DNA of 10,747 nt from Nitrososphaeraceae archaeon (lineage in GTDB: Archaea; Thermoproteota; Nitrososphaeria; Nitrososphaerales; Nitrososphaeraceae). The DNA is taken from the NCBI GenBank assembly GCA_035297365.1, contig DATGZA010000101.1:1-10747 (forward strand), read 5' to 3'. Below the pieces are notes generated by a model. It worked only from the letters and a program-made list of their open reading frames with translations, was not told the DNA's origin and ran no database searches. Made by a program: the position numbers and the translations under genes. Shown here piece by piece: positions 630 to 10,747 of this stretch (its first letter is position 1; every line of letters starts with the position of its first letter).

Positions 630-2195
630 CTATAGTGCTTCGGTTGCAGTTCTGTCAGAAATTATTAACTGCCCGATTACCCCAAGCGCTATAGAAATAG
701 AAATTTGGAGAAGAAAACTTTTTAGATTCAATATTTTCTTATTTTGACAATTGAGGAAAGTAAGTGGAAATTTGGTATAAAGTAAGGTTTTGTTCATTCT
801 TTTGTTTTGTTGTGACGAAATTTTTGATTCCGCATAATATTTCAACAATTCGGATAATTTCGCTTTACATGAATCCATATCCGAGGTGAAATAACTATAT
901 CCTGATAGTTTATCAAAAAAATGCTCAGGAACATTTAATATGTTAGATTCTTCTAATATCCTATAATGTGCTTCGTTTACGAAATCCATTAATGATGAAA
1001 AGAGATCTTCAATTTTATCCTGATTATATTCAAATATCGAATCTTGTTCCCTTAGTTCTCTTTGGGTGTTCTCAGCAATGTTTAAATTTGAGTAGCTAAA
1101 ATTATCCATCATCTGCAACATATCACCAATTCGAAAATTCAAATTCTTATAATGTAGATTTGTGTCTCCCCTAACTTCATTCCCAATTATTTCAACATTT
1201 TTCCTAAATCTAGTTAGTGCTTTGTTATAACGAGTAGAATAGTTATCCGAATTGGTCAAACTTTGTAGCTTTGTCTCAAAAGGTATATAAGGTAAGTTGT
1301 AATACTCGAATTGCAACTTATTAATCTTAAATTTTAAATCTTCTAATTTAATCTTCTGCTGTGATAAGTTTTCGATTGAATCATTTAAAAAATTCTGTTC
1401 TATTGCTGTTGCTTGCTTATTCCTAATAGGACCTAAAGAAGTGTTAACTAATAATCCGAAGACGACTGCGATAGTAACAGTATAGCAAAAAACAGGAATG
1501 ACTCTTCTCATAATGACTAAATCCCACCTAGTAGAAGGTGCATATTGGTGTGCTTCAAAATAAAGGAATGTCAAGGTCCCGATAATTGATACGAGGATAA
1601 TCAAAGCATAGGTTTGATCAGTGAGTCCATAGAATAGCCGTGTATTTTCCTCCGTAAGTACATATGTGGCCCAGATGTAAGTTACTGCGATAATTATTCT
1701 AGGCAGAAAAATAGAAACTACAAAATATTCAGATCGAGTACCATAGAACAGAATGAAGATAATAAGAATACAAAATAACCAAACAGAAATAGAAGTTAGA
1801 AAACCAATAGTAAGAATAAGACATATAAGGAGTATTAAAGTTCTTTTTGTAAAAGTACGATGTTTAATCTTCCAAAGAAACTTAGATGGCAATTGGTTAC
1901 TCTGGTTCAGAAAAAATTGACTGCAAAGTATAATAGCAAATAGAATAAACAAAATTGATAAAGTATTATTAGATAAAAAATATAAGGCTTTTAGTTTCTT
2001 GGTCAGAGAAATATTAAACAAAACATTATTCCAGTTGAATATTAACCATGCTATGAGAATATACAATAGAGTTATTGAATAGATTAAAGAAAAGAATGGA
2101 ATGTATATCCATGGAGAAAACACCAATTTCCATGATGATATAAGATCATAACGCTTAAGCAAAAACTTAACAGCACCGGTTTTATCATTATTCAT
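630..2195 (-). CDS. Multi-pass membrane protein (about 8 TM helices, large soluble helical/coiled-coil loop), unknown function; probably the C-terminal part of a gene frameshifted from 2198..2947
   Basis: 521-aa ORF. Hydrophobic segments lie at about aa 24-55, 78-96, 119-152 (two), 158-180, 195-215 and 232-250. A polar heptad-like region spans about aa 255-490 (IENLSQQKIKLEDLKFKINKLQ). A final TM segment (SFLLQISISIALGVIGQLII) precedes a short tail (SDRTATEAL). Confidence 0.8.
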   Translation of the reverse strand: MNNDKTGAVKFLLKRYDLISSWKLVFSPWIYIPFFSLIYSITLLYILIAWLIFNWNNVLFNISLTKKLKALYFLSNNTLSILFILFAIILCSQFFLNQSNQLPSKFLWKIKHRTFTKRTLILLICLILTIGFLTSISVWLFCILIIFILFYGTRSEYFVVSIFLPRIIIAVTYIWATYVLTEENTRLFYGLTDQTYALIILVSIIGTLTFLYFEAHQYAPSTRWDLVIMRRVIPVFCYTVTIAVVFGLLVNTSLGPIRNKQATAIEQNFLNDSIENLSQQKIKLEDLKFKINKLQFEYYNLPYIPFETKLQSLTNSDNYSTRYNKALTRFRKNVEIIGNEVRGDTNLHYKNLNFRIGDMLQMMDNFSYSNLNIAENTQRELREQDSIFEYNQDKIEDLFSSLMDFVNEAHYRILEESNILNVPEHFFDKLSGYSYFTSDMDSCKAKLSELLKYYAESKISSQQNKRMNKTLLYTKFPLTFLNCQNKKILNLKSFLLQISISIALGVIGQLIISDRTATEAL

Positions 2196-2197
2196 CT

Positions 2198-2947
2198 TTA
2201 ATTCGATCCAAAATAGTTGACAATTTGCAAGAGTTCAGTTTCGGGATGTGGGAACCAATAGGTTAATTCTTTTGATACCCATTGAGATGGGTACTTTTCT
2301 TCTAACTTATTGGAAAGCAATAATTCATAATACTCCTCAATGGCTTTCTCTTTTATCTTGGAGCATCCTTCTTCTCTATACTTGTAAAACATTATTCTTT
2401 TCAATAGAAAATCTCCTAAAAAGGCATTAGAAAGCTTAGTAAGAATTCTTTTCCTGGCAATGGATAAATTATCCTTATCCCAAGACTGGGAAATAAGCTC
2501 ATCTAATAAAATTATTAAAGCAAATCCCTGAACATCTTCCAATCTATATTGTTCTGTATTCTGAGTATTTAATTTATGTACTTTCAATGTTAATGGCAAT
2601 ATTTTTTTTAAATATTTTAACCGGTAATCCTTTTCTATGAGAGTATGTAAATTTATCTCGAATAAATTATTCCCCACTGATACATATCTTATTCTACTTG
2701 CATTTTTTATATCTTGATTTGTTTGATTACAGTTTTTTAGATTAATCCTTAGGGGGAGAGTAGACTCATTATTGAAATAATTAGAATCCTCCACGCTAAT
2801 GCTAATCATATCTGGTGACAGCGAAGCGAAAAGTTTGAGTTTTTCTAACTCTGAATTATTTATTTCAAATTTATTAAATTCAATAATATATAGAAGGTTT
2901 CTTCCATCATTTAAATTCTCTGAAACTTCGAGATGTTTAAATATCAT
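2198..2947 (-). CDS. Soluble hypothetical protein (249 aa); probable N-terminal cytoplasmic part of the downstream membrane protein
   Basis: Long ORF in the operon orientation, with a 3-nt gap to the upstream gene and a 2-nt gap to the downstream gene. It ends ...YWFPHPETELLQIVNYFGSN. The frame of the next ORF is already open across this end. Confidence 0.7.
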   Translation of the reverse strand: MIFKHLEVSENLNDGRNLLYIIEFNKFEINNSELEKLKLFASLSPDMISISVEDSNYFNNESTLPLRINLKNCNQTNQDIKNASRIRYVSVGNNLFEINLHTLIEKDYRLKYLKKILPLTLKVHKLNTQNTEQYRLEDVQGFALIILLDELISQSWDKDNLSIARKRILTKLSNAFLGDFLLKRIMFYKYREEGCSKIKEKAIEEYYELLLSNKLEEKYPSQWVSKELTYWFPHPETELLQIVNYFGSN

Positions 2948-2950
2948 TGG

Positions 2951-4741
2951 TTAAGGTTTAAATCTCAAGTTTATAGCCTCATGAAAACTTTGAATATCAG
3001 ATGTGTAATTATCTTTGATACCTTGCAAATTATCTAAAACACATAGCTGATTGTACAAGCGATATAAACATTCAACGCTTATTTCTTTTTCACTTTCTTC
3101 GCCATATGCTAGTGTATAATAGAGTTTTCTAATTAAACGATTAAGTCTGCAAAGATCGTTGTTGTTTTTAAAAAAGCTTTCTTCTAAGAAATTAGCAAAT
3201 AAGCTCCCCTGTTTAGAGTCTCTATAGATTTGTTCTTCATTACCATATTTTGAAATGAAAAAAACATATTCAGATCCAAATAAATTTTTCAACCCGGCTA
3301 TGTCTGTATTATCCTTTATAAATGGTTCCGCTTTGCTTAAAGATTTCTTTAAAAATTTTTTCAGCCCTTCTAGACTAAAAATTGCACTCTCAATTTGAAG
3401 TTGCAAGAATTTATTCAGGGTATTAATGAAAAGATATGGTGTATTGATTGGATCGGCACCTCTACTTAGGTACCAAAAATAATCTATCAATCTCACTCCT
3501 TTGTTTCTGAGATCATCAATGAATGTCTGATTAAATGAAGTTATCGGAAAAATCCAAAGTCTTTGGAGTGGGCCTCTATTTGCTTTAATATCTGAATAGG
3601 CATTTCGTAAAGAAAGATATTTGTTCTTATCTTCATTAGTGTATTCCTTTTTAGCTAATTTCTCATCTGACAAGTCAAAATATTGTTCTCGTCCATCGCC
3701 CCAAAATTCGGTTGCAAATTCTCGTTCATCTAAAATTTCACCATTCTCATTTTTTTTATTATCGAGTAGGTAATCCATCATTATCACATCAAAATGTAAT
3801 GCTCCATTACCAAGAACCTCTCTGGCATGTGAAAGACTTTTAACGGCGTGTATCTCTATAAAAAAACAATCTTCATCACCTCTTTTTTGATCTTTTGTTT
3901 TGATATGTTTTAAGTTATTACACTCTTGACAACATATGGGTTTACATTCAGTAAAGATTCGGACCGAAGAAATTTTATCATCTGAGCTTGTTTTCCAGCA
4001 GACATCATTTTTCTTATCGTTATCAAATTCCAAATCAAGCAAGGTTTTAATGAGTTTAGCTTTGCACCCTTTTTCTCCTATTTTATCATCAATGAGAAGA
4101 ATTCTAAAATTAAGGCCGTTATTCTTTTTGTTTTCTTTTGACTTTGTATCAACTTTTAGGTAAATTTCTAATTCATGAGACAAACAAAGATCTTCGCGCA
4201 ACTTCAGTTCATTAGAGTAAACATAAGGAGTTAGGTATTTAGAGTGTGCACCGTCAGGAGAATAACTTTCAGCCAGAGAATTTATTGTTTGCAACCGAAG
4301 GTGCAATGCAAGATGCTCCCATATGTTATTTATAAAATATTTCGGTGAATACATCTGTTCAAAAAGTTTTTTACCCTCCATTACCTTTTGGGTTATAAAA
4401 TTCTTAACATTTGTTTGGTCTTTTTGAATATCAATGAATCTGATAAGGATGTTTGAATTCAATAAAAATGTAACATGAGCAAAATCAAAGATGAATTTAT
4501 TATTAAAATTATCCGTTTCATATTTTCCATCAAACTTGCCAGTTGATGATATTATAAAAATTGGTTGAGCTTTTTTCTTGAACTCACGATCTGCATTCAG
4601 TATATTAAACAATCCATCGCAGAAAGCACCGTAAATTTTTTTATTTGTGAGAGCTTCACAGGGACAAAGAAACACATATTCTAATTCATTGTGCCAATGT
4701 ACCTTGAATGATTTACTTTTTATAGAAAATAAATTTGCCAT
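2951..4741 (-). CDS. Atypical response-regulator receiver (REC) domain protein with large insertions, no recognisable DNA-binding domain
   Basis: 596 aa. REC motifs occur in the correct order: beta1 FRILLIDD (D218/D219), beta3 FDVIMMDYLL (putative phospho-acceptor D323), beta4 WIFPITSF (T401/S402). AVKSLSHAREVL matches the beta2-alpha2 segment. The conserved Lys-Pro is not evident (GADP instead). Confidence 0.7.
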   Translation of the reverse strand: MANLFSIKSKSFKVHWHNELEYVFLCPCEALTNKKIYGAFCDGLFNILNADREFKKKAQPIFIISSTGKFDGKYETDNFNNKFIFDFAHVTFLLNSNILIRFIDIQKDQTNVKNFITQKVMEGKKLFEQMYSPKYFINNIWEHLALHLRLQTINSLAESYSPDGAHSKYLTPYVYSNELKLREDLCLSHELEIYLKVDTKSKENKKNNGLNFRILLIDDKIGEKGCKAKLIKTLLDLEFDNDKKNDVCWKTSSDDKISSVRIFTECKPICCQECNNLKHIKTKDQKRGDEDCFFIEIHAVKSLSHAREVLGNGALHFDVIMMDYLLDNKKNENGEILDEREFATEFWGDGREQYFDLSDEKLAKKEYTNEDKNKYLSLRNAYSDIKANRGPLQRLWIFPITSFNQTFIDDLRNKGVRLIDYFWYLSRGADPINTPYLFINTLNKFLQLQIESAIFSLEGLKKFLKKSLSKAEPFIKDNTDIAGLKNLFGSEYVFFISKYGNEEQIYRDSKQGSLFANFLEESFFKNNNDLCRLNRLIRKLYYTLAYGEESEKEISVECLYRLYNQLCVLDNLQGIKDNYTSDIQSFHEAINLRFKP

Positions 4742-4746
4742 ACACT

Positions 4747-5460
4747 CTAGCTATCAATAAAAGCTTCGTAACTCTCATCAATTTTATCCGGTAAAATTAA
4801 ATTCAACAAATAAGATTCTTTATCGCTTTTCCCCTCTAATTCATTAACAAGTTCTTCGTTATTGATGACTTTCCAAACATAATCACCAATATTGTGACTA
4901 AAACCATTAACAAATAAATTTTTGCCTTCCTCCAGTAAAAAATCATCGTTAAAAAGTGAGATTTTATTAATCAAAATCTTTTCGCCTTTATCATTCGAGA
5001 GGAAATCACCATCATGAAGAAAAAGATAAATAGTGTAGGGCAACCCATCATTTCTTTGATTATAATCTGAAATCTGAACCGAGCTTATAATCTCCTCTAA
5101 AATTTTTCTCAAATAAAATATTATTCTTCCATTATCATTTTGATGATTAATTTGTTTATCAAACCAATGATGATAGAAAAATATCTTGGAACTAGGAAAG
5201 CGTTTCAATTCACCTGAAAAATGAGAATTGATTTTATGATCATCATCCTTGAAATGGTTTCTCAGGCATTCGATAAATTGAAGTATGTTTGTACCTTTGA
5301 AATAGAAAGTCTTATTTTGTTTATTTTTAACAACATCTTTGTTTAATATTTCTATTAATTTATTTAAATGTTCCTTATTAGAAATATTTGGTGATTTTGA
5401 GGCAATGTTGTTACTATCAAAATACCTTGTAAGTATCAGTATTATGTTTTTGTGATTCAT
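4747..5460 (-). CDS. Hypothetical protein (237 aa), probable alpha/beta (receiver/Rossmann-like) fold with His/Asp residues at strand ends
   Basis: ATGA overlap with the kinase stop codon (5457-5460). Hydrophobic strands IILILT, IFFYHH, IYLFLHDGD and LFVNGFSH alternate with amphipathic helices. The fold is inferred. Confidence 0.7.
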   Translation of the reverse strand: MNHKNIILILTRYFDSNNIASKSPNISNKEHLNKLIEILNKDVVKNKQNKTFYFKGTNILQFIECLRNHFKDDDHKINSHFSGELKRFPSSKIFFYHHWFDKQINHQNDNGRIIFYLRKILEEIISSVQISDYNQRNDGLPYTIYLFLHDGDFLSNDKGEKILINKISLFNDDFLLEEGKNLFVNGFSHNIGDYVWKVINNEELVNELEGKSDKESYLLNLILPDKIDESYEAFIDS

Positions 5461-8400
5461 ATATTACTGATCTTTTGTTTATGAAATGGAATATATTTTT
5501 GATTATAAAATAATTCTGTAAGCATATACTTTGAATTTCCAAGGGCCCATTCAATTCCAGAAAGAGGAATGAAAGCTATTTCATTTTGTTCCTTAGTGTC
5601 TTTGAATTTGTGGAGATCACCTCTTCCCGAGTGAACGGAAATCTTGCCAGGATATTCGTTAAATATATTCTGAAGAGTAATAATTAAATCCTCATTGCTT
5701 TTCAATTTTTCATTAATTTTCTCAATAATCCCATAATGTATTGAAATAAAATGTGAATTCTTTATTTCTGTAAGAGTATGTTTTTTTTGGTCAATAGCGC
5801 TGATGAATAAAGGATTTTTTTGATCAAATTCCTCTATATCTACATCATAAATATCAATGTTTTTGCCATGGAAGTAGCTTCCCCAGCTCTTGATTATTTT
5901 TACTTCTTCAGTTACATTGAATGAGGCTTTCATCCAATTCTTAAATTTTTCTTCTTTTTGTCCAAAATAATCAAGTTTGTCATTGAAAATTATGTTTTCT
6001 TTTTCTGAGTCTCCTATGTTTATTCTTTCAATTGCAATACCGGACAAATTTGCATAACTGATAAATTTCCTAATTAAGTCTTGATATGAAAAATCACCTT
6101 GCCCTTCATTTAACAAATAGTTACTGAAATCAGCGAGTGATATATAGTCAAAAGCACTTGATGATGCTTTACTACTAAACTCAGGATTTTTATATTTTTC
6201 AAATAGTCTCTCATCAATAATAACTATTCGTGTAAGGCAAGATTCAATAATCTTAATATACTGTTTTAAACTCATTATTGAATTTCTTAATAATGAATTT
6301 GTATAATTGCCACCACTTATCCCTTCAAGAAAAGAACAGTAATGTGGCAGTGTCCTGATGAAATCGTTTTTTGGATCTATTGTTTCATAATGGTTCATAA
6401 AAAGAACATACTCAGATTTATATAAACTATCAAGACTTTCCACTTCCTCATTTCCTAAGTAATAGACAAAATTGGATAAAATCTTCTCTTCATTAATGGA
6501 AGATTCTTTTAGATTCTTTTTTGTCTGGTCTATTGCTAATAGAGTTATATCAAAGCAACTCTTATAATTATTATTATTTAGTTGTGTACAATTAAGAATA
6601 AAACTTTTATTAAAATAATAAGCACTTTCAATTTTATCACTGTCAATTCCATAAAAGAGATCTTTGCATTGATTATGAGGATTATTAATATCCTTTTTAA
6701 AAGTTAAATGTCTTCCTAGCTTGTGCTTTATATCTTCAAATTCTTCTGAAACAACAAGTCTTGGCAACCAAGGCTGTAGAAGTTTGTACTTCTTTTGACC
6801 CTCATCCTTATCTAGAATATAAATTTCTGCCGAGGGAAGTTTTGAAACAAAAGAAGCAATTCCTGTTTCAGTTAGATCGCTTTTTTCGTAATAGTAACAG
6901 CCAGGAACAACTTCGGTATCTTTTTCTCTTTCGATCAGAAATACCTTTTCTTCAAAACAATCGAGAGAAAATGATATAGCAAAGTTGCCTTCATTGTTTA
7001 TAATATAAAAATCAAGTTCTTCTGATGGATTATCTTCAATAATTGAGTAATTATCATTTCCCTTCATCCAAGATAGGCATATGAGAATTTCTTTAAGACC
7101 TTTGTGATTATGATCAGGTTTGGATTCTGATTCGTCAAGTATCTTTAAGGATTTTGATTCAATTTTGTATTTGTTTTCGTCTCCTAAATATTTGGATAGA
7201 ATTGTTTTGATTCCGGATTTATTAATGTTGTCTATAACATTATTGAAGTTTTTTTTGTTATCTTGAATTACGATATTATAAGAATACTTGCCTTCATGGT
7301 CCTGTTTCTTATTGACTGTTATAGTTATTTCAAGTCCATTTTGAGGAATATCTTTCTGCAAATGTTTGGCAGAATTCCTAGTAAAATTTTCAATAATTGT
7401 CAGAAATGCTTGCCGCCCATTGAGCCCATATGGAATCGATAAATAAATTGAATCCAATTTTTGAGAAACTGTACTTTGAGAGACTAAACTCTTTAGCGTA
7501 ATAGTATCTTCTGCTTCTTTCAAAGAAATGCATATTTCAATTTTTTTACCAGAACCGTACCTGGTTATTTTTTCAGAACTTACAATATTGTCCAAGATAT
7601 AGTTATTGAACATTTCTCTACTTCGATGCCTTATAGATGGTCCGTCATAAGCTAGATAATCAAAAATATGTTCTTTTAGATTCACTGGTCCTTTAGTGTA
7701 AGTCTCTCCTGAAGCAAGTACGGCAATAAAGTCCTGACGCTCTTGTATGTAATGAAGCAATTTTGAAAGTCCAGAGAGATCTTTCTGCAAAGTCTGACTG
7801 TTTAATGCCAGTCTTTCGAGTTCTGTTTTTGTATTAGTAATTACATGGCTACCTATATTATGACTCATATTTCTAGCCATGATTGCTGAAATAGCAGACT
7901 TCAAGGCATTCTGCCGAGCCCTTTTTGCCAACAAAATCCCGGAATCTAACAAGTAATTATAAGATAGCTCTTTAACCTTGGAAGAGATTAATTCACCAAG
8001 ATTCTCAAACTTATATTTACTATTTTCAAAGTCGATTGATGTTTTTGGTTCAAAGATGAAATAAATAAAACAGCAACCAAGACCATTAAGTTTGTTACTT
8101 TTGTTATCACTAAATGGGGCCCCTACTATTGGAATAGCACATAAAAGACTTTTTCTATTGGGGGAATATTCATTATGCATTAAACTATGCATTGCTCTGC
8201 AAACATCCTGAATTGATTTTTCTCCTGTATAATAATTATTTGCATTATCCTTAAATTCATTATATGATATTTTAAAAGATGCATTCTGAAGAAATATGCC
8301 TGTTTTATCATTTAATGAAACCAGATTAAGGAGGTCATCTTGGGGGATTTTAGAATACTGGGGTTCGGATTCATTACACAATGATAACAGCATTGTCTCA

Positions 8401-8792
8401 TCTTCAGGTTGTATGAAAAAACTAGGATGGTAGAGTATTGTGTTGCCATCACGATGTAGCTTTTTGACAATAGCATAAAACTTTTTATTAAAAACATCTA
8501 TATAAATATCAGAATTGGTTTTAAGTAGACAAAAATCTGATAACATTCCAGTTTCTAATGTGGACACAACTGTAATGAATTCGAAAAATACTGCCTCAAA
8601 ATCGAAATCTTTTATTTCATTTTGCACAATTTCGAAGAGAATTTTTAAACCTGATTCTTGATAGAAATCTATGGAACTACCCTTTAATTTATCCTGAGTA
8701 AATTTGCTTGCTTGGTCAATTTGAATCCTCTTAAGATTTTCAGAGAATTCCTCTTTGAATGTATTATATTTAGAAAATTTGAAGTCAATCAT
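5457..8792 (-). CDS. Large soluble atypical hybrid histidine kinase-like protein (GAF-like, HisKA-like H-box, GHKL/HATPase, C-terminal pseudo-receiver)
   Basis: 1111 aa with no TM segment. H-box-like helix SAISAIMARNMSHNIGSHV (H311). N-box AFLTIIENFTRNSAKH (E468-H477). G1-like IVIQDN (D511). G2-like HKGLKE (G565), followed by the strand NFAISFSL. GAF-like SLLCAIPIVG...LGCCFIYF lies before the H-box. The C-terminus has REC-like strands RIVIIDER, FISIHYG and ISVHSGRG. Confidence 0.7.
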   Translation of the reverse strand: MIDFKFSKYNTFKEEFSENLKRIQIDQASKFTQDKLKGSSIDFYQESGLKILFEIVQNEIKDFDFEAVFFEFITVVSTLETGMLSDFCLLKTNSDIYIDVFNKKFYAIVKKLHRDGNTILYHPSFFIQPEDETMLLSLCNESEPQYSKIPQDDLLNLVSLNDKTGIFLQNASFKISYNEFKDNANNYYTGEKSIQDVCRAMHSLMHNEYSPNRKSLLCAIPIVGAPFSDNKSNKLNGLGCCFIYFIFEPKTSIDFENSKYKFENLGELISSKVKELSYNYLLDSGILLAKRARQNALKSAISAIMARNMSHNIGSHVITNTKTELERLALNSQTLQKDLSGLSKLLHYIQERQDFIAVLASGETYTKGPVNLKEHIFDYLAYDGPSIRHRSREMFNNYILDNIVSSEKITRYGSGKKIEICISLKEAEDTITLKSLVSQSTVSQKLDSIYLSIPYGLNGRQAFLTIIENFTRNSAKHLQKDIPQNGLEITITVNKKQDHEGKYSYNIVIQDNKKNFNNVIDNINKSGIKTILSKYLGDENKYKIESKSLKILDESESKPDHNHKGLKEILICLSWMKGNDNYSIIEDNPSEELDFYIINNEGNFAISFSLDCFEEKVFLIEREKDTEVVPGCYYYEKSDLTETGIASFVSKLPSAEIYILDKDEGQKKYKLLQPWLPRLVVSEEFEDIKHKLGRHLTFKKDINNPHNQCKDLFYGIDSDKIESAYYFNKSFILNCTQLNNNNYKSCFDITLLAIDQTKKNLKESSINEEKILSNFVYYLGNEEVESLDSLYKSEYVLFMNHYETIDPKNDFIRTLPHYCSFLEGISGGNYTNSLLRNSIMSLKQYIKIIESCLTRIVIIDERLFEKYKNPEFSSKASSSAFDYISLADFSNYLLNEGQGDFSYQDLIRKFISYANLSGIAIERINIGDSEKENIIFNDKLDYFGQKEEKFKNWMKASFNVTEEVKIIKSWGSYFHGKNIDIYDVDIEEFDQKNPLFISAIDQKKHTLTEIKNSHFISIHYGIIEKINEKLKSNEDLIITLQNIFNEYPGKISVHSGRGDLHKFKDTKEQNEIAFIPLSGIEWALGNSKYMLTELFYNQKYIPFHKQKISNI

Positions 8793-9429
8793 CTTTCCTG
8801 ATTATTAATAAACCATCACGTATTGGCAGAAGGATTTTACTTATTCCTTTAAAATCTCGTATAAATGAAATGAACATCTTAATTCCAGTGGTCTCAACAT
8901 CATCTTTGTTTGAAAGAGGGTCAAAAGCCTTCTCACCCCAAAAGAGATTATCAACTAAAATGTATTTCCCCGGATTAACATTTATGAATATTTTATTAAA
9001 ATAATCAATATACTCATTCTTATCACCATCAATATATACTAAATCATGCTTTAAATTGATTGAGTCATATACATCAAAAAAATCTCCAAAATGAACAAAT
9101 ATTTTATCAGCATTATTTGTTAAGTTTATTGCGTTATGAATTATATTCTTCAATGAAGTGTCTCTTTCTATGGTATCTAACCTTCCCTCTTTTTTTAATC
9201 CTTTTGATAATGCAATTGCAGAGTATCCAACATAAGTTCCAATTTCAAGAATATTTGTTGGATTAATCATTACACTTAGGAACTCCAGAATTTTACCTTG
9301 AAGATGTCCAGAAATCATTTCAGGATACTTGATCAAACTAAGATTCCCATTTACAAAATCCTGCAAAACTTTATCCTCTGGAGTTACAAAAGATTCAATG
9401 AATTTAACAAATTTACGATCGAAGATCAT
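8785..9429 (-). CDS. SAM- and cation-dependent O-methyltransferase (caffeoyl-CoA/catechol O-MT, YrrM-like family)
   Basis: 214 aa. SAM-binding motif ILEIGTYVGYSA, acidic residue after beta2 (DTIE), metal/catalytic motifs LVYIDGDK and ILVDNLFW, C-terminal LPIRDGL. The N-terminal MISGHLQG segment is typical of Bacteroidota members. Confidence 0.93.
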   Translation of the reverse strand: MIFDRKFVKFIESFVTPEDKVLQDFVNGNLSLIKYPEMISGHLQGKILEFLSVMINPTNILEIGTYVGYSAIALSKGLKKEGRLDTIERDTSLKNIIHNAINLTNNADKIFVHFGDFFDVYDSINLKHDLVYIDGDKNEYIDYFNKIFINVNPGKYILVDNLFWGEKAFDPLSNKDDVETTGIKMFISFIRDFKGISKILLPIRDGLLIIRKDD

Positions 9430-10550
9430 TCGGCTGGCGTCAGTTTCCCATTAATATACTTACAAATTTCAAGACTCAGGTTCATCTCTCCATTATTTTG
9501 AAATGACAACTGACCTGTGATGCCCTCCAAATTAGTTTTAAGTATTTGTAATCTAAGGCTATCTTTATTTGCAATTGCATGACACTTTTTGATAACATCT
9601 AATAGGATAGTATAATTATCATAAGCATATGCGTTAGTATACTTAGGTTCTTTATGAAATCTTGTTCTGAATCTTTCTTTCCAATTATTAGTATTTGGAT
9701 TCTCTCGAGAGTTAAATATTGGACTTGTAACATAAAATCCCTCCAATAATTCGTTTGACAATTCGGCTGCTGCATCAAGCAAATCAAAAGAACAAATTAC
9801 TGTAGATTTTTCCGAAATCTTGTAAGCTTTAAAATCTTTAATTAACTGTATCAAATTGTCCTTAAATCCATTCATTACTATAACATCTGGATCATAGGCT
9901 TTTACTTTTGCCGCCAAATCTTTGAAATCAGATTTTGATATATCATAAGGTTCTTGCATAATGAATTTAATACCATAATCTAGGATTTGAGGTTTAACGA
10001 TCTGATTAAACTGAATATCCGTTCCGCTTATGTTAACATAAATGAGAGCTACTTTTTTAGGTTTAAATCGTTTGATAAAATCAACATAGAATTGAGCCTC
10101 AACTCCAAAGTTGACATAATTTCTAAATAAAAATTCTCCTTCTGTCAATCGAACAGGAGTAAATGCCCACAGGAAATGAGGTATTTTTTCTTGATTCACT
10201 AAATCCTTGATTGCCATTGATTGCTGTGTAACACCAGACATATAAATCTGAACATCCTCAAGTTTATGTTTTTGGAATATTGATAAAGCTGTCTTAGCCT
10301 CACCTTTATTATCTTGAAAATCATATAAAAGTTCAATATTGTACTTCTTTAGAGTATCACTAAATTCTTCTTTCGCCAAAGTTATACCTTCCTGTACCGA
10401 GATACCATATGTCGCCAAGTCTCCAGAAAGTGGAAGATTAACACCAACTTTTACAACTTTTTCATTGATTTTAGGTGCTTTTACATTACAAGATATCACG
10501 AAAAGAAAAAGCAAAATCCAAAGGCTACTGAAAATAAGTTTGGTTTTCAT
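9426..10550 (-). CDS. ABC transporter substrate-binding lipoprotein, branched-chain amino acid (LivJ/LivK, type I periplasmic binding fold) family
   Basis: 374 aa. Signal peptide with lipobox VIS-C21. Family motifs VKVGVNLPLSGDLATYG, DNKGEAKTA, FLFR, KKVALIY, DFKDLAAKVKAYDPDVI, AYAYD and EGITGQLSFQNNGE. The ligand cannot be determined from the sequence. Confidence 0.92.
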   Translation of the reverse strand: MKTKLIFSSLWILLFLFVISCNVKAPKINEKVVKVGVNLPLSGDLATYGISVQEGITLAKEEFSDTLKKYNIELLYDFQDNKGEAKTALSIFQKHKLEDVQIYMSGVTQQSMAIKDLVNQEKIPHFLWAFTPVRLTEGEFLFRNYVNFGVEAQFYVDFIKRFKPKKVALIYVNISGTDIQFNQIVKPQILDYGIKFIMQEPYDISKSDFKDLAAKVKAYDPDVIVMNGFKDNLIQLIKDFKAYKISEKSTVICSFDLLDAAAELSNELLEGFYVTSPIFNSRENPNTNNWKERFRTRFHKEPKYTNAYAYDNYTILLDVIKKCHAIANKDSLRLQILKTNLEGITGQLSFQNNGEMNLSLEICKYINGKLTPAE

Positions 10551-10552
10551 AG

Positions 10553-10747
10553 CTAATTAAAAATATTATTATGTAAAATATCCATATTAAATTTATCATC
10601 CAATTTAAATTCCCTGTCAATCACCCCCCTTTCCAGCAGCAAAATCCTGTCTGACAGCTGTTGAGCCAGCCTGATGTTTTGTTCTATCAAGATTATGCTA
10701 ATAGATTTCTGTTCCTTTATTTTCCTGACCGTCTCAGATATAATTTC
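10553..10747 (-). CDS. livF: 3' end of a LivF-type branched-chain amino acid ABC transporter ATP-binding subunit (truncated by the window edge; absent from the ORF track)
   Basis: Manual translation of the reverse strand from 10747 gives EIISETVRKIKEQKSISIILIEQNIRLAQQLSDRILLLERGVIDREFKLDDKFNMDILHNNIFN*. IILIEQN is the LivF-type H-loop (Q replacing H), followed by SDRILLLERG. The TAG stop at 10555-10553 is 2 nt before the binding-protein ATG. Confidence 0.85.
   Translation of the reverse strand, partial: EIISETVRKIKEQKSISIILIEQNIRLAQQLSDRILLLERGVIDREFKLDDKFNMDILHNNIFN

Follow-up and report, generated by a model that had tools for sequence, protein, structure and literature searches.

In the PstSCAB-PhoU-PhoR and BceAB-BceRS systems, the histidine kinase lacks its own ligand-binding domain; its gene accompanies those of an ATP-binding cassette (ABC) transporter, whose state the kinase is presumed to read. 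PhoR and BceS belong to canonical families of membrane proteins and work with DNA-binding regulators, and the small accessory protein PhoU may act as a bridge. The present study concerns a DNA stretch of 10,747 nucleotides (hereafter, the window) assigned to a Nitrososphaeraceae archaeon (GCA_035297365.1, contig DATGZA010000101.1), in which five genes, A to E, lie downstream of ABC importer genes. We read A-E, with somewhat more confidence than doubt, as an ABC-importer-coupled His-Asp signalling module with non-transcriptional output. As in the Pst and Bce systems, A stands beside an ABC transporter; B may bridge in the manner of PhoU, and signalling via an importer resembles Pst-PhoU-PhoR in particular. 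In contrast to them, A is soluble, the protein families are new, the importer varies among loci (Liv-, Opp- or polar-amino-acid-type), and the set includes a variable enzyme and a dedicated membrane protein.

Binding proteins can serve both transporters and signalling receptors. In LuxP-LuxQ, TorT-TorS, XylFII-LytS and HptA-HptS, the extracytoplasmic domain of a transmembrane kinase docks the binding protein, and the available part of a review on binding-protein-dependent signalling lists transmembrane receptors only (PMC8050422). Here too, the gene for a solute-binding protein adjoins the kinase gene. However, A lacks a hydrophobic segment, unlike kinases of the LuxQ/TorS type. Since no membrane segment is predicted in A, the external lipoprotein cannot touch it directly; with A soluble and the lipoprotein outside the membrane, the signal must pass via the importer, the imported ligand or the membrane protein of the set.

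Several traits recall classical two-component systems, namely the predicted kinase fold, the His, the N-box Asn and the G1 Asp of A, the DD...D...T pocket of C, and the adjacency of A and C, which are sometimes fused as in hybrid kinases. Other traits do not fit these systems. Both A and C remain below all Pfam and NCBIfam thresholds; the H-box of A reads SHN.GSH, and A, with neither a membrane domain nor a known sensor domain, ends in an additional conserved domain. In C, the Lys of receivers is missing, long insertions are present and there is no DNA-binding or enzymatic output; the conserved protein B is placed between A and C. We class A-E as two-component signalling with new families, in an importer-coupled, enzyme-containing, membrane-output architecture. 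The features of the window are as follows.

5457-8792, minus strand: protein A, 1111 amino acids (aa), soluble, very divergent histidine-kinase-like protein by predicted fold and invariant motifs
6918-8030, minus strand: kinase core of A (residues ~255-625), a predicted helical hairpin with the H-box, and ATP-binding domain
5460-6365, minus strand: C-terminal alpha/beta domain of A (residues 810-1111), family-specific, from a 30-sequence alignment
4747-5460, minus strand: protein B, 237 aa, divergent member of the X family by profile hidden Markov model (HMM)
2951-4741, minus strand: protein C, 596 aa, N-terminal alpha/beta domain, receiver core and helical C-terminal domain
3392-4129, minus strand: receiver-like core of C (residues ~205-450), by acidic pocket and profile comparison
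2198-2947, minus strand: protein D, 249 aa, soluble, probable N-terminal domain of the c4 family, by weak profile matches
630-2195, minus strand: protein E, 521 aa, polytopic membrane protein, C-terminal two thirds of c4 by profile match
8785-9429, minus strand: class I S-adenosylmethionine (SAM)-dependent O-methyltransferase, 214 aa (Pfam Methyltransf_3, E 3.2e-26)
9426-10550, minus strand: LivJ-type substrate-binding lipoprotein, 374 aa (Pfam Peripla_BP_6, E 2.2e-37)
10553-10747, minus strand: C-terminal 64 aa of a LivF-type ABC ATPase, an open reading frame (ORF) open at its 5' end and cut by the contig end
2-562, plus strand: fragment of a TerB-domain protein (Pfam TerB, E 3e-5), convergent with E

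The kinase-like protein A and the receiver-like protein C

An initial annotation, made from the letters of the window, had proposed a His-Asp relay with non-canonical H-box, N-box and receiver. For A, the motifs are conserved beyond chance across 20 sequences, i.e., A and 19 homologues with 23-42% identity (alignment A1). S310, H311, N312, G314, S315 and H316 of the H-box, R472, N473, A475, K476 and H477 of the N-box, and K564, G565, K567 and E568 of the lid motif KG.KE are invariant, and the G1 aspartate D511 is nearly so. The codons of H311 and N473 lie at 7860-7862 and 7374-7376, respectively. D-N and K-G-x-K-E replace the glycine-rich G1 and G2 motifs. The AlphaFold2 model of A has a mean predicted local distance difference test (pLDDT) score of 67, with values of 70-95 over most of residues 320-700. 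The 12 fold matches of this model in the PDB at E<=0.001 belong exclusively to histidine kinases or to the kinase modules of phytochromes (e.g., 4gcz, 7z8n, 6qrj, 8isj). These matches also cover the helical dimerization and histidine phosphotransfer (DHp) part, and none of them is to another GHKL family. Thus, structure prediction bears out a GHKL-type fold for A, specifically that of histidine kinases. HATPase_c gives a weak match in 2 of the 20 homologues (E 0.027 or weaker), and the sequence of A alone has no match among PDB sequences. A is, by its modelled fold and conserved motifs, a very divergent histidine-kinase-like protein.

The regions that flank the kinase core differ in conservation. 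The N-terminal ~250 aa are poorly conserved and poorly modelled, and the hydropathy scan finds no membrane segment in A. The C-terminal ~300 residues hold invariant G827, D860-E861-R862, H1019, K1025, H1054-S-G-R1057 and K1088 (alignment A4, n=30). For this domain, there was no significant match among PDB sequences (profile search, E>=0.14 only) and no usable match in the ESM Atlas. A pseudo-receiver was considered for it; the similarity to the receiver profile amounts to 0.3%, and the idea stays an impression from topology.

The family of A is large and unnamed. A word-indexed search with A returned 46 relatives, every one unnamed or "hypothetical", and four of them carry N-terminal methyltransferase domains. 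An exhaustive profile search (1.84 billion, clusters at 50% identity) yielded 3224 representative clusters at E<=0.001, 1701 of them at E<=1e-30. Carriers belong to Bacteroidota, Verrucomicrobiota, Desulfobacterota, Acidobacteriota, Planctomycetota and some archaea; among those with related operons are metagenome-assembled genomes of Akkermansia, Prevotella and Bacteroides type.

In C, the acidic pocket proposed by the initial annotation is invariant: D218, D219, D318, D323 and Y324 are present in all members of alignment A3 (C and 23 homologues, n=24). The family consensus reads LL.DD ... FDIILLDYLL ... PISAF ... GADP.NTP. The acidic pair would be D218/D219 and the putative phospho-acceptor D323 (codon at 3773-3775), and the Thr/Ser position after beta4 is kept as T401, in the consensus segment PISAF. 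Comparison of C by hhalign with a profile built from the receivers of NtrC-type regulators of related loci gave 93.8% (E 1.7e-7, 55 columns), with D323 placed on the acceptor Asp; control profiles (methyltransferase, ABC-ATPase, binding protein) gave <=4%. Sub-threshold Pfam receiver matches occur in 7 of the 24 members, five to cREC_REC (best E 0.0038) and two to Response_reg, and no precomputed Pfam domain was found among 45 relatives of C. The sequence of C alone has no match among PDB sequences. Its model (pLDDT 70) alternates strands and helices over residues 211-425. The receiver fold itself was not recovered by Foldseek, and it is the profile comparison that points to it. We consider C receiver-like, with an intact acidic pocket and a fold that is so far a prediction.

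Membership of C in the cREC family was also considered. Weak cREC matches in 5 of 24 C-family members recall this family (PF20274; PMC7824862, available in part). However, these matches are all sub-threshold, and the context is wrong for cREC, as C adjoins or is fused to a histidine-kinase-like protein; the assignment was rejected.

Beyond the receiver-like core, C residues ~435-596 (~160 aa) form a conserved, all-helical bundle without a match, and no DNA-binding or enzymatic output was detected in C. For A-E together, nothing relevant emerged at E<=0.1 from the Pfam, NCBIfam and PADLOC libraries. At the level of these libraries, the earlier statement that the five proteins lack a recognisable helix-turn-helix, GGDEF or other standard output domain holds.

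B links to the related loci through the X family, the small proteins encoded between kinase and receiver in 63 loci. The HMM of this family matches B at E 1.8e-7, and hhalign gives 93%. H149, D152 and H189 of B (LHDxD...FxH) are invariant. B has no homologue detectable by BLAST or tblastn, and nothing usable in the ESM Atlas (feature scores <=0.80, query TM score <=0.35). Comparison of the operon families with each other by hhalign (C, the C-terminal domain of A, X and the N-terminal part of c4) uncovered no internal relationship.

Conserved partners and the membrane family c4

Pattern scans of contigs from one genome per species identified 152 relatives, and those of metagenome contigs 443; 79 and 80 loci were kept, respectively, along with one from viral contigs. 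ORFs were called and proteins clustered over 160 loci and the window, and 159 loci were scored for context. Upstream, a LivJ-type binding protein directly precedes the kinase in 94 of the 131 loci with at least 1.5 kb of upstream sequence; binding protein, BPD_transp_2 permease and ABC ATPase occur together in 54 of the 86 loci with at least 6 kb. Downstream, the 92 loci with at least 6 kb contain C in 53 cases, X in 44 and the membrane family c4 in 54, with C and c4 together in 53. The full set is present in 32 of the 68 loci flanked by at least 6 kb on both sides. Full-length relatives begin with two Liv-type permeases, followed by two ABC ATPases, a LivJ-type lipoprotein, a variable enzyme, A, B, C and the membrane protein. 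Furthermore, seven loci encode A, X and C as one fused polypeptide (1567-2214 aa), and X-C fusions are found in L104, L105 and L138. The conserved synteny in dozens of loci, together with the fusions, sustains the earlier proposal of a dedicated module. A single-sequence search for the C-terminal domain of A missed the domain in 24 loci with c4, which leaves its cross-tabulation against c4, X and C uninformative.

The c4 family is present in 68 loci. Its members combine a soluble N-terminal domain of 270-480 aa, five to nine hydrophobic segments, a variable insert and a last hydrophobic segment, with conserved intramembrane Pro, Trp and Gln positions. E matches c4 profile positions 365-749 of 750 (E 5e-22) and has six hydrophobic segments at residues 34-245, a charged insert of ~240 aa, a last segment at 488-506 and a short conserved tail. 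The hydropathy scan counts seven hydrophobic segments in E and none in A-D. D matches c4 profile positions 36-323 weakly, in three colinear segments (whole-sequence E 0.14, 8 queries), and gives 56% against c4 by hhalign; it has no tblastn-detectable homologue. Because these colinear matches immediately precede the portion of the profile that E covers, D and E can be read as a split c4, in which D is probably the N-terminal cytoplasmic domain carried by a separate gene. A fresh frameshift or an assembly error as the origin of the split was rejected, since contigs from two runs and two studies share the junction without an indel (either run may be the source sample). A 174-nt metatranscriptome contig (run X9) matches D exactly at 2374-2547; DNA carry-over is possible, and the contig is too short for a claim about transcription.

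A similar arrangement may exist elsewhere. P0094, a 532-aa stand-alone protein from a metagenome-assembled genome of Bacteroidetes, can be aligned with E at 41% identity, from residue 4 through to the last, which likewise speaks against a fresh error. Its locus tag, NT040_10555, is two steps away from that of the C homologue P0062 (NT040_10545). The tags suggest one gene between the two and, thus, the same split order of C, a D-like and an E-like gene in that genome.

The enzyme between importer and kinase is variable. In the window, this slot is filled by the O-methyltransferase, which is of the catechol/caffeoyl-CoA O-methyltransferase type. Slot genes were found in 70 of the loci scanned, and the slot is sometimes empty. 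Elsewhere, it holds at least four methyltransferase families, isochorismatase, flavin reductase, class V aminotransferase, radical SAM enzymes, a pyridoxal phosphate-dependent decarboxylase with a pyrroline-5-carboxylate-reductase-like protein, or an alanyl-tRNA-synthetase-like protein. The importer varies as well, and loci without a Liv-type importer often have another ABC importer, either SBP_bac_5 with BPD_transp_1 or one with a polar-amino-acid-type permease. In L031, L046, L063, L067 and L160, SBP_bac_5, two BPD_transp_1 permeases and an ATPase (an Opp-type importer) and a radical-SAM enzyme precede the kinase. L160 is the only match from the viral collection, and most loci of this Opp-type variant have an NtrC-type regulator after the kinase. 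L046 and L160 also encode a protein of ~840-1100 aa, and the representative of its cluster, from L037, carries a cold-shock domain.

Among distant relatives of A without X, C and c4, Response_reg occurs in 14 and Sigma54_activat in 4 of 90 downstream proteins. The proteins of clusters 12 and 13 (~640 aa) contain a central receiver, which scores 95-98% against the REC profile, and cluster 12 is related to C at 85%. Domains seen once each among these 90 proteins include a Card1-like endonuclease with CARF, TCAD9, a cytidine-deaminase-type domain and Peptidase_C39 (alignment A8). In about ten loci (among them L004, L006, L087, L114, L117, L137, L145 and L153), C and c4 give way downstream of the kinase to a short X-like protein of ~175 aa, a protein of ~630-850 aa and a membrane protein of ~257 aa. 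Neither the ~630-850-aa protein (four hydrophobic segments in an 849-aa example) nor the ~257-aa protein has a Pfam match or similarity to C or c4.

Operon continuity, neighbours and host genome

The window is an entire contig (C101) of a 2.52-Mb assembly in 110 contigs. Eight co-oriented ORFs fill its minus strand from 10747 down to 630, and the junctions from the LivF fragment to E measure 2, -4, -8, -4, 5, 3 and 2 nt. The five ORFs A-E with junctions of -4, +5, +3 and +2 nt, as originally described, are borne out by the ORF list. The original start of the unit at 8792 is not, as the tight array runs on upstream: the O-methyltransferase overlaps A by 8 nt, the lipoprotein gene overlaps the methyltransferase gene by 4 nt, and the LivF fragment follows 2 nt further upstream. 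No terminator-like site was found between the operon genes on the minus strand in the scan; over the window, promoter-like sites (59 against 55.9 expected) and terminator-like sites (3 against 4.2) are at the level of shuffled sequence. A-E are thus the distal half, and probably the signalling half, of one operon of at least eight genes.

The upstream part of this operon resembles the importer genes of the related loci. By blastp, the LivF fragment matches the C-termini of their ABC ATPases (e.g., residues 175-221 of 236 in L004, E 6e-8), and LivF is the last importer gene before the module there. The lipoprotein belongs to the type I periplasmic-binding-protein fold family. It has a signal peptide with a lipobox-like end, VISC, and one hydrophobic segment at residues 5-23.

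The TerB-domain ORF at the other end has homologues of 37-43% identity at L114:12572-13078, L117:14631-15137 and L003:5-283. In L114 and L117, the gene map places a ~403-aa protein immediately behind the alternative downstream module, and the TerB part is the C-terminal end of this protein. The TerB-domain protein is a neighbour and possibly a loosely associated component.

Membership of the contig in the assigned genome rests on composition: its GC content is 30.9% against 30.5% for the genome, and the tetranucleotide correlation is r = 0.979, the sixth lowest of 79 contigs. The low GC content, a trait that the initial annotation named for many anti-phage operons, is that of the assigned genome and no mark of an island here. 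The A family was found in none of 40 relatives searched (24 of the same genus and 16 from other families of the order) and in none of 300 further genomes sampled from the phylum (E<=1e-10). The contig has no housekeeping gene, and the rest of the 97%-complete assigned assembly contains no Liv permease. This lone occurrence, the missing permease and the lack of a housekeeping gene leave recent horizontal acquisition or a mis-binned contig as the origin of the operon here. Loose contig ends were seen at 562 in three runs and at 10607 in two runs, with a depth about twice as high outside. The TerB and LivF ends seem to be present in other genomes of the samples as well, unlike the sequence between them, and the module may be a variable insert. 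The first 500 bases of the window reach 41.6% GC, compared with ~30% in the remainder.

Signalling, defence or transport

A His-Asp relay explains A and C most economically, given the repeated association with receivers, the fused polypeptides and the kinase fold of A. The constant binding-protein-dependent importer and the small-molecule enzyme argue for the sensing of an imported compound or of transport rather than of an infection signal. A possible sequence of events would begin with the importer bringing in a small molecule, which the adjacent enzyme may convert. Soluble A could then detect the ligand, the product or the transport cycle via its variable N-terminal region, its C-terminal domain or both. 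It would autophosphorylate on H311 (or H316) and pass the phosphoryl group to D323 of C, with B as an accessory in the complex. Phosphorylated C would act through its helical C-terminal domain on a non-transcriptional target, most likely D/E, which by co-inheritance is the obvious candidate. As far as seen, the output in this subtype is non-transcriptional. That phosphotransfer takes place, what kind of signal is sensed and that D/E forms the output are what we infer here.

Several observations weigh against an importer-coupled relay. Neither a HisKA-type family nor HATPase_c rises above its Pfam threshold in A, nor can a sensor domain be recognised there. The two invariant His residues, H311 and H316, lie at a helix break in an H-box loop with pLDDT <50, and the acceptor His could be either or neither. 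C of the window has no Pfam match. The profile of C reaches PDB sequences only at E 0.19, to the NtrC1 receiver, and Foldseek with its model gave nothing at E<=0.001 (best E 0.04, top rows mostly Rab-type GTPases). In place of the beta5 Lys of receivers, C has the conserved G-A-D-P-x-N-T-P. Among the 68 fully flanked loci, 15 have the binding protein without c4 and 3 have c4 without the binding protein. From a Liv importer the window, ending with the contig, retains the binding protein and 64 aa of LivF, with the permease missing from the assembly as described above. C is connected to D/E neither by a fusion (none of C with c4 was seen) nor by a predicted contact, which leaves co-occurrence as the tie and makes the post-translational switching of the membrane protein by the receiver, as proposed initially, a conjecture. 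About ten loci swap C-c4 for another pair of proteins, so the output is not fixed. The degenerate G1/G2 glycine motifs of A also count here. Together with the unusual double-His H-box in a modelled loop, the lack of the conserved Lys in C, the failure of Foldseek to recognise C as a receiver and a His at the receiver acceptor-Asp position in the C-terminal domain of A, they would suit a different view, in which A is not a protein kinase but a GHKL-type ATPase with a structural or chaperone-like role, e.g., in regulating the ABC importer, and C is a pseudo-receiver that is never phosphorylated. We regard this as very unlikely, as the fold matches are specific to histidine kinases including the helical DHp part, both His and the Mg-binding Asn are invariant across 20 such dissimilar sequences, the acidic pocket of C is invariant across 24, and bona fide Response_reg proteins follow distant relatives of A.

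The initial annotation had left two options, metabolite sensing and a defence or abortive-infection system. Metabolite sensing has gained from the importer, binding protein and enzyme found upstream and from the regulators beside distant relatives. Among defence systems, the two-component system Detocs is comparable in design: several genes in one operon encode its kinase, intermediate protein and receiver protein, and its output is non-transcriptional. A-E likewise comprise a kinase-like, an intermediate and a receiver-like protein with a presumably non-transcriptional output. In a defence role, the kinase would sense infection or an imported or invader-derived molecule, and the receiver would trigger D/E as a membrane-disrupting abortive-infection effector. 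Such a role would agree with the patchy distribution (0/40 relatives and 0/300 phylum genomes), with fast-evolving parts, B and D having no tblastn-detectable homologues, with the modular, swappable parts, with an operon that ends in a multi-transmembrane protein, and with the Card1-endonuclease/CARF, TCAD9 and deaminase domains downstream of single distant loci (1/90 each). However, PADLOC-DB 2.0.0 models match none of the five proteins at E<=0.1, and unlike Detocs, the A-E loci have no nucleosidase-type effector, are associated with an importer and a metabolic enzyme, and were seen in no defence-island context. Relatives are absent from 72,556 plasmids and 50,697 phage records, and 2.9 million viral contigs contain one. 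No defence family recurs in a set of 130 flanking proteins (25 loci, drawn from 191 proteins of 33 loci): the top PADLOC families reach 3/130, which equals the count of three Pkinase-domain proteins by Pfam, with no formal enrichment test made. The kinase is constantly accompanied by nutrient-type ABC importers and metabolic enzymes, and its distant relatives are paired with transcription activators of the NtrC type. A defence role therefore appears unlikely; if true, it would mean a defence triggered through nutrient-type import, which would be equally unusual.

D/E might instead be a channel or exporter in an import-modify-export or quorum-like circuit, in which the slot enzyme makes or modifies a molecule, the ABC importer takes it up again, and kinase and receiver gauge its level inside the cell and gate D/E. 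D/E would then be a partner in transport, or even the receptor, and not an effector that kills. The joint inheritance of importer, variable small-molecule enzyme and conserved polytopic membrane protein would fit, as would the conserved intramembrane Pro, Trp and Gln positions of c4. LivJ-family proteins with non-amino-acid ligands are on record and would suit a catechol-type O-methyltransferase; CouP, a LivJ-family binding protein, has p-coumarate, ferulate and caffeate as ligands in the available part of the review cited above (PMC8050422, Table 2). On the other hand, neither D/E nor c4 was found to be similar to any transporter family, the slot is sometimes empty and its enzymes share no chemistry, and biosynthetic genes are not consistently present. 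Such a circuit thus seems improbable. Returning to the importer-coupled relay, a broader form of it would posit a large unrecognised signalling class, in which an importer and a swappable enzyme feed a soluble kinase and, in the Bacteroidota-type version, the receiver gates a membrane protein directly and leaves transcription aside, a self-contained circuit from import to membrane response, possibly for cell-cell or host-derived signals; we consider this generalization conceivable though doubtful.

The initial annotation had recognised no named system, and we arrive at the same point: the family libraries provide no name, every source label seen reads "hypothetical protein", and no description of the A-E family was found in the full-text literature, a coverage that extends to neither supplements nor subscription journals. 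In Bacteroidota and other bacteria of the gut, rumen and soil, nutrient sensing is thought to proceed mainly via hybrid two-component systems and extracytoplasmic function (ECF) sigma factors tied to outer-membrane uptake. The A-E module may represent a separate sensing route missed by current annotation, in which a binding-protein-dependent ABC importer is hard-wired to an unrecognised soluble kinase-receiver pair. If so, it would add a new histidine kinase family and a new receiver variant, and it would offer a testable case of transport-coupled signalling with a non-transcriptional, membrane-level output. Its importer, enzyme and kinase would then be modular parts, with ligand specificity apparently swapped in evolution.

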